DNA from: Candidatus Saccharimonadales bacterium | Lineage (GTDB): Bacteria; Patescibacteriota; Microgenomatia; Levybacterales; UBA12049 | Assembly: GCA_035478335.1 (NCBI GenBank) | Contig: DATIJS010000033.1 | Span: 1-57,417 of the forward strand | DNA: 57,417 nt | Direction of reading: 5' to 3' | Shown: positions 4,320 through 6,014 of the stretch, one piece after another | Position numbering within the stretch: position 1 is the stretch's first letter | Layout: each line of letters opens with the position of its first letter | Program-made: the position numbers and the translations under genes | The notes under the pieces: generated by a model | The model's input: only the letters and a program-made list of their open reading frames with translations | Database searches by the model: none | Told to the model about the DNA's origin: nothing

Positions 4320-4697
4320 ATGAAGATAATACAGACAAATAATGCACCCGCTGCGGGCGGCCCATATTCGCAGGCAATAATCTCCGGTAGTTTTGTTTTT
4401 TGCTCAGGGCAGATTGGCCTTGATCCCAAAACCGGTGAGCTAAAAGGAGCTGATATTATTTCCCAAACAACTCAGGTAATCTTCAATTTAAGTGCTGTTC
4501 TTGAAGCAGCGGGATCATCACTACAAAACGTTATTAAGACGACATGCTATCTTACAAATATTTCTGACTTTCAGAAGTTTAATGACATTTACGCAAAACA
4601 CTTTGTTTCAAACCCCGCCCGTGCAACAATAGAAGTATCCAATCTCCCCAAAGATGCAATTGTAGAGATCGAGCTGGTCGCTGAAATTGTGCTATAA
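4320..4697 (+). CDS. ridA: RidA/YjgF family reactive enamine/imine deaminase
   Basis: The 125-aa product begins NAPAAGGPYSQAI..SGQIGLDP..G, typical of RidA. It lies directly downstream of ilvA. Confidence 0.88.
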   Translation: MKIIQTNNAPAAGGPYSQAIISGSFVFCSGQIGLDPKTGELKGADIISQTTQVIFNLSAVLEAAGSSLQNVIKTTCYLTNISDFQKFNDIYAKHFVSNPARATIEVSNLPKDAIVEIELVAEIVL

Positions 4698-4706
4698 TCA
4701 ATTCTC

Positions 4707-4902
4707 GGGCTCATAGCTCAGTTGGTTAGAGCCGGATCTATAGCTCAGTTGGTTAGAGCGCTTCATTGACATTGAAGAGGTCAGCGGTTCGAATCCACTT
4801 AGATCCACATTGACATTGTCAAGGAACGGAGACCGAAGGTCGAGTTCGCCTGAGAGCGAAGCGAAACAGGGGTGGGGAGAGGTTCGACTCCTCTTGGGCC
4901 CA
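4707..4902 (+). other. Split tRNA-like gene: 5' acceptor and D arm (4707-4733) and T arm with 3' acceptor (4878-4902), separated by 144 nt
   Basis: GGGCTCA pairs 7/7 with TGGGCCC (one G-U). The D arm is GCTC-AGTTGGTTA-GAGC and the T arm AGAGG-TTCGACT-CCTCT. No anticodon arm can be placed between them. Confidence 0.5.
4734..4807 (+). tRNA. tRNA-Val (anticodon GAC), CCA not encoded
   Basis: Acceptor is GGATCTA/TAGATCC and the anticodon arm CTTCA-TTGACAT-TGAAG. The T arm AGCGG-TTCGAAT-CCACT has one C-A mismatch. Confidence 0.85.
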
Positions 4903-4916
4903 CAAATATTTAATAC

Positions 4917-6014
4917 ATGCAACCAAGACTGCAACGCTACAAAAAATTTATAGATACTCAATTTATCGATAGCCTACTCTGGAATAAGGACTACTCGCTT
5001 TATGGACTGGATAAAAATTTAAGAACCAAAATCGAAGCTGGCCAATTCAAAAATATAATATTTACAGGAATGGGCTGTTCTGCTATTGTCTCTGACGTTA
5101 TCAAAGGATTCTTTGCCAATCAGCAAATATCACTTCATGTTGAGGTATTAAACGATTATCAGTTTGGTTTTCTTGTTGATAAAGAAACTCTCACTGATGA
5201 AAAAACTCTAATTATTATCAGTTCTTACAGTGGATACTCCCAGGAACCGCTTAACTTTTACCAAAACATTAAGGATTTAACGCAAAACGTAATTTTTCTA
5301 ACATCAGGGGGCAAATTAGCCGAAATTGCAAAAAATAATCATGTTTCCTTAATTTATTGGAAATTACGAGAACCAGACCGAGAGTACCCACTTTTTCATG
5401 TTCCACAATATTTCAGCATACTGCTCGATATTTTCGCGGAATTGAAGATGATTAAATCAAATTATTACAAAGAACTAGAAGAATCTGTTGCATTTCTAAA
5501 AAATTATTTTACTGAGGAAAGAATTAAGCTATCCGAGTTAATAGCCGGGAAGTTAAGAGATAGAGAAATTATATTTTTAGCTAATCCAATGTGGTATTTT
5601 ACCTTACTGAAGCTAGCAGATATGCATTTCAATGAAATGTCTATGGCTCCTGCTCACAGAAATTTCTTCCATGAATTTACCCACAGTGAAGTAGCTGTTT
5701 TTACCAATCCCAAAAATAAGCTTGCAATTGTAATATTTAGAGATGCAGAAGAAGACGAATATACAAACGAAAAAATAGATAATCTTGTTTCTATTCTAAC
5801 TGATAAAAATACTGCTCAAAACAAAAATATTGAACTAATCGAAATACACTTGAATCAGGCTAATTTCTTTGAAAAATTCTTCTCCTCGCTTCTTTTCACA
5901 AATTACATTGCTTATTTTTTGGGAATATATAACAAAACTGAATCTAGAGAGCTAATTTCGTTATCAGCAGGAAATCCCTGGTATAATCAGAAAACAATAC
6001 AATCGGAAAAGTAG
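4917..6014 (+). CDS. SIS-domain sugar isomerase, likely bifunctional phosphoglucose/phosphomannose isomerase family
   Basis: It has a SIS-like motif (IIFTGMGCSAIVSDV, IIISSYSGYSQE). Its length and layout resemble archaeal-type PGI/PMI. Confidence 0.6.
   Translation: MQPRLQRYKKFIDTQFIDSLLWNKDYSLYGLDKNLRTKIEAGQFKNIIFTGMGCSAIVSDVIKGFFANQQISLHVEVLNDYQFGFLVDKETLTDEKTLIIISSYSGYSQEPLNFYQNIKDLTQNVIFLTSGGKLAEIAKNNHVSLIYWKLREPDREYPLFHVPQYFSILLDIFAELKMIKSNYYKELEESVAFLKNYFTEERIKLSELIAGKLRDREIIFLANPMWYFTLLKLADMHFNEMSMAPAHRNFFHEFTHSEVAVFTNPKNKLAIVIFRDAEEDEYTNEKIDNLVSILTDKNTAQNKNIELIEIHLNQANFFEKFFSSLLFTNYIAYFLGIYNKTESRELISLSAGNPWYNQKTIQSEK

Follow-up and report, generated by a model that had tools for sequence, protein, structure and literature searches.

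The composite tRNA-Val locus

The stretch of DNA analyzed here (hereafter "the window") comprises positions 1 to 57,417, the full 57,417 nucleotides (nt), of contig DATIJS010000033.1 from a Candidatus Saccharimonadales bacterium of the Patescibacteriota. At 4707-4902, a complete transfer RNA (tRNA) gene, tRNA-Val(GAC), is nested within the remains of another tRNA-Val(GAC) gene, and those remains are interrupted a second time by a 53-nt structured sequence, termed insV. The total insert in the outer gene is about 145 nt. The upstream neighbors in the window are trigger factor, DUF5660, threonine dehydratase, and RidA; downstream lie a SIS/PGI-type gene, a gene for a protein of 193 amino acids (aa), DUF5665, ThrRS, and IF3. 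By its named homologues, the organism belongs to the Patescibacteria, in the vicinity of Microgenomates and Levybacteria. All features are collected in Table 1.

Table 1. Parts of the composite in the window, of the second composite, and of the tRNA-Leu modules
Locus	Feature	Position	Strand	Basis or remark
Window	Extended -10 promoter-like box, TGCTATAAT	4690-4698	+	Read from sequence; putative function
Window	Outer-gene 5' relic, acceptor 5' strand and complete D arm (tRNA positions 1-25), GGGCTCA-TA-GCTC-AGTTGGTTA-GAGC	4707-4732	+	26/26 vs. L007
Window	Junction base C (G26 in intact relatives)	4733	+	Junction supported by independent assembly L017
Window	Inner complete tRNA-Val(GAC), presumed working gene	4734-4807	+	ARAGORN, tRNA-Val(gac); Rfam tRNA (RF00005), 67.8 bits
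Window	Outer-gene anticodon-arm relic and variable-loop start (positions 30-46), CA-TTGACAT-TGTCA-AGG	4808-4824	+	16/17 vs. L007
Window	insV, 53 nt, two hairpins, in outer variable loop	4825-4877	+	Boundaries +/- about 2 nt
Window	Outer-gene 3' relic (positions 49-76), AGAGG-TTCGACT-CCTCT, TGGGCCC, discriminator A	4878-4902	+	25/25 vs. L007
Window	Trailer, CAAATATTTAA	4903-4913	+	11/11 identical to L007 trailer
L005	Composite, 5' part: GGGTTCATAGCTC, insD in D loop, then AGCTGGTTA without D-stem 3' strand		-	
L005	Composite, middle: 16-nt AT-rich leader, identical inner tRNA, CAA		-	
L005	Composite, 3' part: full anticodon arm TTACATTGACATTGCAA-AGG, insV, T arm CGAGG-TTCGACT-CCTCG, TGGGCCCA		-	
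L015	Module A: tRNA-Leu-like 5' part (positions 1-32), then insV			
L015	Module B: tRNA-Leu positions 1-19, then insV-like sequence			

A first-pass annotation, made from the letters of the window, had described two outer tRNA parts, an intact inner tRNA-Val, an 11-nt repeat, and hairpins in 4810-4870, and all of these are present where it placed them. It had also anticipated that a tRNA finder would report the inner gene only. ARAGORN and Rfam indeed called 4734-4807 (the Rfam score is to be compared with a gathering threshold of 29), and the outer gene was called by neither. By these measures, the inner gene is a canonical bacterial tRNA. The outer gene (4707-4733 plus 4808-4902) is not, as not all of its arms are complete after removal of the intervening DNA.

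The arrangement is not an assembly chimera, a possibility raised earlier. Logan assemblies of three other sequencing runs (L002, L003, and L017) agreed base-for-base with the window; L002 and L003 together span 4734/4755-4920, including the junctions 4807/4808 and 4877/4878, and L017 reads through 4733/4734, so that every junction is covered by independent assemblies. The same nested arrangement was found in a second species (L005, a 1.14-Mb contig from an unrelated project). The Logan contigs stop at landmarks of the inner tRNA (L002 starts at 4734, L003 starts at 4755, and L017 ends at 4770), an indication that the inner tRNA is in part common to other genomes of runs SRR9179560-63, where its context would be different. 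An 87-aa open reading frame (ORF) with a TTG start runs antisense over the whole composite (4698-4961, minus strand); no gene is recorded there publicly, and the ORF is almost certainly spurious.

The comparison loci were those of the closest RidA homologues. In five of them (L007, L008, L009, L011, and L012), the syntenic position, i.e. after RidA and peptidase M20 and before DUF5665/ThrRS, is occupied by a single ordinary tRNA-Val(GAC) of 75 nt, and the intact gene reads GGGCTCATAGCTCAGTTGGTTAGAGC-G-TTACATTGACATTGTAA-AGGTC-AGAGGTTCGACTCCTCT-TGGGCCCA. The outer pieces of the window matched the intact L007 gene at 67 of 68 nt, and the earlier proposal that the two halves belong to one gene was thus borne out. 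The outer acceptor strands form seven of seven pairs (one of them G-U), and the outer 3' half occurs only once within the window. Since the outer sequence is that of the syntenic intact tRNA-Val of relatives, the outer gene is the resident; judging from this synteny, its halves are the remains of the single-copy tRNA-Val(GAC) gene that originally occupied the locus. The trailer common to the intact L007 gene likewise places the outer gene in its native context. The promoter-like box ends 8 nt upstream of the first base of the outer gene and overlaps the RidA stop codon, and a TG(n)TATAAT box also precedes the intact tRNA-Val in L007 and L012. No full promoter was found by a generic -35/-10 scan.

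Contrary to the first-pass annotation, which could place no anticodon arm between the halves, 4808-4824 corresponds to CATTGACATTGTAAAGG of L007 and represents part of the outer anticodon arm and variable loop. What the outer gene of the window lacks, compared with the intact orthologue, is positions 27-29 (the anticodon-stem 5' strand) and positions 47-48. The 70 nt between the inner gene and the outer T arm had been treated as one hairpin-rich unit; the three hairpins are there, yet the segment consists of 17 nt of outer anticodon arm followed by the 53 nt of insV.

The inner gene is identical at 74 of 74 positions to the inner gene of L005 (also represented by contig L023), including the one C-A mismatch in its T stem (AGCGG/CCACT). 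Its agreement with the outer type is 60/74. The 14 differences are mostly paired stem changes, among them four pairs in the acceptor stem and two in the anticodon stem, and they extend to the T arm. The two genes have the same D arm (20 nt) and anticodon loop (11 nt). The exact 11-nt repeat CATTGACATTG (4764-4774 and 4808-4818), described earlier as a copy of the anticodon arm of the inner gene, is real. It is not a duplication, however; it occurs because both genes are tRNA-Val(GAC) genes with a common loop sequence. From these differences, the inner gene is taken to be a different allele or a xenologue that was inserted, not a fresh duplicate. The tRNA-Val(TAC) gene, which was compared as a possible origin, has only the anticodon stem in common with it. 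Exact 25-mer and 44-mer searches with the inner tRNA returned nothing from the JGI metagenomes or IMG/VR; the 25-mer covering its T arm and acceptor strand was among the queries without an exact match in the JGI metagenome collection. Retro-insertion of a mature tRNA was rejected as a source: the inner gene is followed by CA or CAA, like genomic trailers here, rather than by CCA, and the 16-nt leader that precedes it in L005 also disfavors this route.

Several observations concern the variability of the site. The tRNA-Val(GAC) gene is on the plus strand in the window (4707-4902), L007 (5502-5576), and L012 (3242-3316), and on the minus strand in L005 (5464-5745), L008 (5459-5533), and L009 (5458-5532), each orientation having its own conserved promoter context. 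Peptidase M20 is present in all relatives and missing from the window, the SIS/PGI gene is confined to the window, and the 193-aa gene is found in the window, L008, and L009. As gene content and tRNA orientation vary in this manner, the site is a hot spot of recombination. The locus of L004, the single relative reached through the downstream SIS gene, has no tRNA upstream. Two closer relatives by RidA (L021, 83% identical, and L022, 81% identical) are on contigs that end before the tRNA; L022 is present in SRR9179560.

The insV element and the second composite

The GC content of insV is 62%, compared with 37% for the genome. Its first hairpin is GAAC-GGA-GACC-GAA-GGTC-GA-GTTC, which makes use of G4824, and its second is CCTG-AGA-GC-GAA-GC-GAAA-CAGG, after which there is a G-rich tail. 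Three copies were found besides that of the window, namely one in L005 and two (A and B) in L015/L018. Locus L015 was found by scanning metagenomes with the insV core, and it was reproduced by an independent assembly from the European Nucleotide Archive (L018). It is syntenic to 1000-1340 of the window (a glucosaminidase-like gene, tRNA-Leu(TAG), and trigger factor), with two extra modules upstream of the intact tRNA-Leu (Table 1). The modules region is at 1102-1420 of L015 on the minus strand, equivalent to 5460-5776 of L018.

Copy A is identical to the insV of the window at 50 of 53 positions (94%). For comparison, the trigger factors of the window and L015 are 58% identical, and those of the window and L007 are 83% identical. 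Copy B is divergent, and the helices of its first hairpin are maintained by double changes (GAAC/GTTC to GGGC/GCCC and GACC/GGTC to GGAC/GTCC). The proposed search for covariation in 4808-4877 thus had a positive outcome in its insV portion: all 14 modeled pairs were kept in the four-copy alignment, with four pairs changed on both sides, all of them contributed by copy B. This level of covariation was reached by only 2 of 500 shuffles, in what is a small sample of four sequences. A covariance model, R1, scored 73-83 bits on the four copies and had no other match in about 133 kb (the window, nine related loci, and the 20.8-kb L023).

In every case, insV has the orientation of the tRNA and abuts a tRNA fragment whose last two bases are GG (at position 46 in Val and at positions 32 and 19 in Leu), and an intact gene of the same isoacceptor stands beside it. 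By inspection, there are neither inverted termini nor target duplications, and the left flanks share only the GG. The hallmarks of elements of the type of IS200/IS605 or of miniature inverted-repeat transposable elements (MITEs), namely terminal inverted repeats with target duplication, or subterminal hairpins with a fixed target tetranucleotide, and multiple copies per genome, were not seen in insV. There was no Rfam match for insV, and its exact patterns gave nothing in IMG/VR, GenBank phages, or plasmids. Seven matches to a degenerate core in IMG/VR were dismissed as chance; they scored 15-16 bits with R1, lacked hairpin 1, and were situated in unrelated GC-rich regions. Hammerhead-like and hepatitis delta virus-like topologies were checked by eye and did not fit.

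The intact tRNA-Leu(TAG) of L015 has the acceptor GGGCCGG/CCGGCCC, unlike the GCGGAYG of its counterparts in the window, L007, and L023; fragment A (GCGGGCG) resembles this typical tRNA-Leu acceptor. In L015 as well, it may be the intact gene that arrived later and fragment A that stems from the original gene. Downstream of insV-A is GGATTTAGAAC, possibly what is left of the Leu anticodon loop. As far as the four copies allow the comparison, insV is a small family of structured elements found at different positions of different Patescibacteria tRNA genes. Its recurrence beside an intact gene of the same isoacceptor implies that it is either mobile or laid down by a recurrent tRNA-breaking recombination in which a replacement is supplied.

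The RidA of the second composite (L005/L023) is 85% identical to that of the window by full-length alignment (about 86% in the search table). L005 keeps the full outer anticodon arm, TTACATTGACATTGCAAAGG, and has lost the D-stem 3' strand (GAGC). The outer pieces are therefore incomplete as a tRNA in both species, the window being without positions 27-29 and L005 without its D stem. L005 carries a third insertion, insD, an imperfect hairpin of 66-68 nt (L005 5665-5732, minus strand). In its apical stem-loop, CGAGG-TTTTCAT-CCTCG, the T stem of the L005 outer gene is repeated; no second copy of insD was detected by BLAST among the comparison loci. The two composites have opposite orientations and different older contexts, that of the window being common to L007 and L012 and that of L005 being common to L008 and L009, all of which are relatives with the simple gene.

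Two further observations were made on these contigs. ThrRS is called in L005 (6110-7328, equivalent to 16246-17464 of L023) as two overlapping ORFs, one of 259 aa and the other of 157 aa, without the N-terminal domains of the 583-aa ThrRS of the window; the split could be a frameshift or a long-read error. At 7821-8178 of L023 (minus strand), between tRNA-Leu(GAG) and tRNA-Leu(CAG), two adjacent short ORFs match PF05635, the 23S ribosomal RNA intervening-sequence protein, and may be one frameshifted gene.

Age of the disruption and competing explanations

The age of the composites was assessed by comparing five genes of the window with those of L023 at four-fold synonymous sites. Identity at these sites was 138/357 (38.7%) against a random expectation of 27.6%, and they are thus near saturation. 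Between the same two species, the outer 3' piece, which extends from the anticodon remnant through insV and the T arm to the acceptor, is identical at 84 of 95 positions (88%), and the outer 5' pieces at 12 of 13 and 8 of 9; only one base distinguishes the relics in the window from the functional L007 gene. Relics preserved to this degree beside near-saturated synonymous sites (the "preservation paradox") do not represent an old, neutrally drifting pseudogene. The first-pass suggestion of a decayed tRNA gene disrupted by duplication or insertion accordingly holds for the insertion, since relatives have the gene uninterrupted; it does not hold for the duplication, given 14 differences in 74 nt, and "decayed" overstates the state of the relics, which are almost unchanged.

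Either the disruption is recent in each lineage, whether independent or horizontally transferred, or the pieces are under selection. Recent events are favored on comparative grounds, because the contexts and orientations of the composites differ and each is common to relatives with the simple gene; because the differences between the lineages (C4/T4, T/C in the D loop, and the compensated T-stem pair) resemble differences between functional genes; because L005 tolerates the destruction of its D arm; and because insV occurs at non-homologous sites. Most likely, a cassette consisting of the inner tRNA, the anticodon-arm remnant, and insV entered the resident gene of each lineage recently, either horizontally, through recombination within the tRNA halves, or by site-directed insertion.

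What is observed is which gene the outer one is, that it carries two insertions, that insV is structured and recurs, and that the relics are paradoxically well preserved. These observations are best explained, with a probability of roughly three in four, by the in-place replacement of a disrupted resident tRNA-Val by a second, complete tRNA-Val together with insV, the outer gene being a relic and not a spliced gene. A tRNA-Val(GAC) of a different lineage would have been inserted after the D arm, ahead of the anticodon arm, and insV would have been inserted in the outer variable loop. The whole composite would be transcribed from the promoter of the old gene (TGCTATAAT), and the inner tRNA, released by RNase P and 3'-end processing enzymes, would now do the decoding; the outer pieces would serve as leader and trailer and would not be rejoined. 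Three routes of insertion may be envisaged. The composite allele could have been transferred horizontally, by homing-like recombination inside tRNA halves of about 25 nt; a small non-autonomous cassette could have been mobilized in trans; or a rescuing tRNA fragment could have been captured at a break, with survivors kept by selection. Pfam searches of the 58 long ORFs of the window and of the neighboring genes in L004, L018, and L023 revealed no integrase, transposase, reverse transcriptase, or homing endonuclease, and a cassette would therefore have to be non-autonomous. Campbell-type and homologous single-crossover models were set aside, as they predict hybrid tRNAs and none was observed.

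Two extensions of the replacement scenario are put forward tentatively. It is possible that a protein-less cassette of about 150 nt (a complete tRNA gene plus insV) spreads among Patescibacteria and replaces the resident gene for the same tRNA. Such a cassette would destroy the resident gene while supplying its replacement, and so its host could not lose it. This would make it a homing element of minimal size, tRNA-borne and "addictive," mobilized in trans by a nuclease or recombinase. The tRNA-Leu fragments of L015/L018, which are joined to insV and precede an intact but deviant tRNA-Leu, would then be products of the same process. The recurrence of insV and the preservation paradox could also reflect a small, as yet undescribed system of mobility or recombination directed at Patescibacteria tRNA genes, a proposal that we regard as speculative to a like degree.

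Several points weigh against replacement. No donor lineage of the inner tRNA was found in the JGI metagenomes or IMG/VR. The junctions of the inner gene differ between the two species (C in the window against the 16-nt AT-rich leader in L005 on one side, CA against CAATTA on the other), which fits later micro-deletions and not a clean site-specific event. The outer T stem differs by a compensatory pair (AGAGG/CCTCT in the window, CGAGG/CCTCG in L005), and selection on the structure of the relic would also explain this. Terminal inverted repeats and target duplications are lacking from insV, no mobilizing enzyme was found, and with four copies of insV in three genomes, of which one is in the 57-kb window, the case for mobility depends on few events.

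Some of these points lend themselves to another explanation, namely that the composite is old, was formed once in a common ancestor with L005, and has flanks that were selected as a functional structured RNA around the tRNA, e.g. as a scaffold for processing or stability or as a tRNA-like regulatory RNA. Conservation of the relic pieces at 88-100% beside saturated synonymous sites would follow naturally, as would the compensatory T-stem change between species, the seven of seven acceptor pairs in both species, and the covarying helices of insV. An alternative 9-bp helix with one compensated change in two sequences adds to these points. It was proposed by RNAalifold between GCCUGAGAG of insV (4848-4856) and CUCUUGGGC of the outer T/acceptor 3' strands (4891-4899), and it is mutually exclusive with hairpin 2 and the T arm; A4853/U4894 of the window is C/G in L005, so that the change in the T stem is matched by compensation in either of the two pairings. 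The predicted helix may be due to chance, as only two sequences are available, and a single compensatory pair between two species is weak in any case. An old selected RNA is nevertheless unlikely: the two composites share no complete architecture (the D arm is destroyed in L005, and the anticodon stem is truncated in the window) and occupy different contexts in opposite orientations, insV in L015 has no T arm or acceptor partner, and the 196-nt region folds no better than shuffled sequence (z = -1.2).

The locus might instead be a scar, left by a prophage, an island, or another larger integrative element that inserted into the anticodon region with its own tRNA-Val and was then mostly deleted, insV being a remnant of its end or arm region. 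The resident gene was split without reconstitution, with a same-isoacceptor gene of another lineage at the break; the phenomenon is documented for actinobacteriophages (PMC10865867), tRNA genes are usual integration targets whose displaced fragments mark the ends of islands (PMC4383910), and the site is a hot spot of rearrangement at which tRNA orientation flips and the M20 and SIS genes come and go among relatives. A scar is nonetheless quite improbable. Both halves abut the inner gene directly, no DNA of an element is left in either species, and it is unlikely that the same minimal remnant would have been reached twice. No integrase was found in the window or the neighboring loci, neither insV nor the inner tRNA has a match in IMG/VR, GenBank phages, or plasmids, and the presence of insV at three tRNA positions (46, 32, and 19) is not expected of a site-specific integrase.

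The interrupted tRNA genes of archaea are functional, their introns being removed by a splicing endonuclease at bulge-helix-bulge motifs, and non-canonical introns are known there at about positions 26/27 and 46/47. The first-pass annotation had entertained such a gene here, i.e. a working split or intron-containing outer tRNA from which the inner tRNA and insV are removed, with ligation of the exons or use of a two-piece tRNA. The insertions at about 26/27 and 46/47 agree with the archaeal positions, the acceptor strands pair throughout, the T arm is intact, and the anticodon GAC is present in 4808-4824. Unlike exons of the archaeal type, the outer pieces do not together form a complete tRNA, as positions 27-29 are gone from the window and the D-stem 3' strand from L005, and ARAGORN did not assemble the outer gene. 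Moreover, an intact tRNA with the same anticodon is present, leaving nothing to rescue, and no protein tRNA-splicing pathway is known from bacteria. No splicing-endonuclease-like protein was among the Pfam-matched proteins of the 57-kb window; no bulge-helix-bulge was evident in the minimum-free-energy fold, and no search aimed at such motifs was made. Rfam searches (E <= 10) of 4500-5100 of the window, 5400-6100 of L005, and 5430-5800 of L018 returned nothing except tRNA, and thus no group I intron or other self-splicing or self-cleaving family. Sub-threshold matches to YrlA, transfer-messenger RNA, and small nucleolar RNA were driven by the tRNA arms and were rejected. A working split tRNA is accordingly given very little credence.

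The identical D arm and anticodon loop of the two genes would be accounted for if the resident tRNA-Val had been duplicated locally in tandem and had then been rearranged and decayed. These are, however, the segments conserved in most tRNA-Val(GAC) genes, and the four acceptor pairs and two anticodon-stem pairs among the 14 differences, set against relic pieces that themselves have only one substitution, make such a duplication highly implausible.

Relation to known systems and significance

The closest functional analogue of the proposed replacement is tRNA-dependent lysogeny, in which actinobacteriophages break an essential, single-copy tRNA gene of the host and supply their own tRNA of the same isotype, on which the host then depends (Guerrero-Bustamante & Hatfull 2024, PMC10865867). 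The host and incoming sequences share a core of only about 10 bp in that system (PMC10865867), to which the 11-nt CATTGACATTG of the composite is comparable. In both cases the resident gene is split without reconstitution and a same-isoacceptor replacement is supplied, here one with 60 of 74 positions identical. Unlike the phage system, the locus has no prophage, no integrase was found, and there are no attL and attR sites kilobases apart; instead, the replacement is wedged between the halves in an insert of about 145 nt, insV is involved, and the host belongs to the Patescibacteria.

When islands integrate into tRNA and transfer-messenger RNA genes, the intact gene is classically a hybrid of host 5' and island 3' sequence, with nothing but a 3' fragment displaced at the far end (Islander, PMC4383910). 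The composite resembles such islands in its tRNA target, in the fragments beside an intact gene, and in the variable gene content among relatives. It differs in that the intact gene is wholly foreign and flanked by both 5' and 3' fragments, and the fragments in L015 are 5' ones. In the archaeon Caldiarchaeum, the 5' fragment of a tRNA-Thr allele precedes another allele, from which it is separated by a 1.8-kb recombinase-encoding element (Sugahara et al. 2012, PMC3293823). A 5' fragment upstream of a second intact allele and insertions at non-canonical tRNA positions are common to the archaeal case and the present one; the present locus, however, is in a bacterium, its outer gene is not complete, and no enzyme was found to be encoded close by. 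The locus thus shares a break-and-replace logic with all three tRNA systems, without their recombinase-bearing element.

As to insV itself, short, GC-rich, hairpin-forming, non-coding sequences at non-homologous sites, with structure better conserved than sequence, recall in general terms the MITEs, the repetitive extragenic palindromic (REP) sequences and bacterial interspersed mosaic elements (BIMEs), and the palindromes of IS200/IS605. Unlike MITE and REP elements, insV has a very low copy number (one in the 57 kb of the window, and no copy in about 75 kb of sequence from relatives), and it is found only in or against tRNA fragments, always in the orientation of the tRNA and without terminal repeats.

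In a phrase search of the open literature, no account of one tRNA gene nested inside another was encountered. The nested gene by itself would be a curiosity; it is the recurrence of insV and the preservation paradox that carry the weight. For annotation, the locus is a reminder that tRNA finders miss such relics, which are useful as markers of these events. The tRNA sets of minimal genomes are single-copy, so that breakage of a member should be lethal, and the locus shows a way in which turnover can occur all the same, with a foreign gene for the same tRNA taking over from inside the old one and using the old promoter. If insV does mark a mobile or recombination system directed at tRNA genes, it would represent a new and very small kind of selfish element and a new way for tRNA genes to be exchanged within the candidate phyla radiation. 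It would also provide a bacterial parallel to the processes that have been proposed for the origin of the split and intron-containing tRNAs of archaea.

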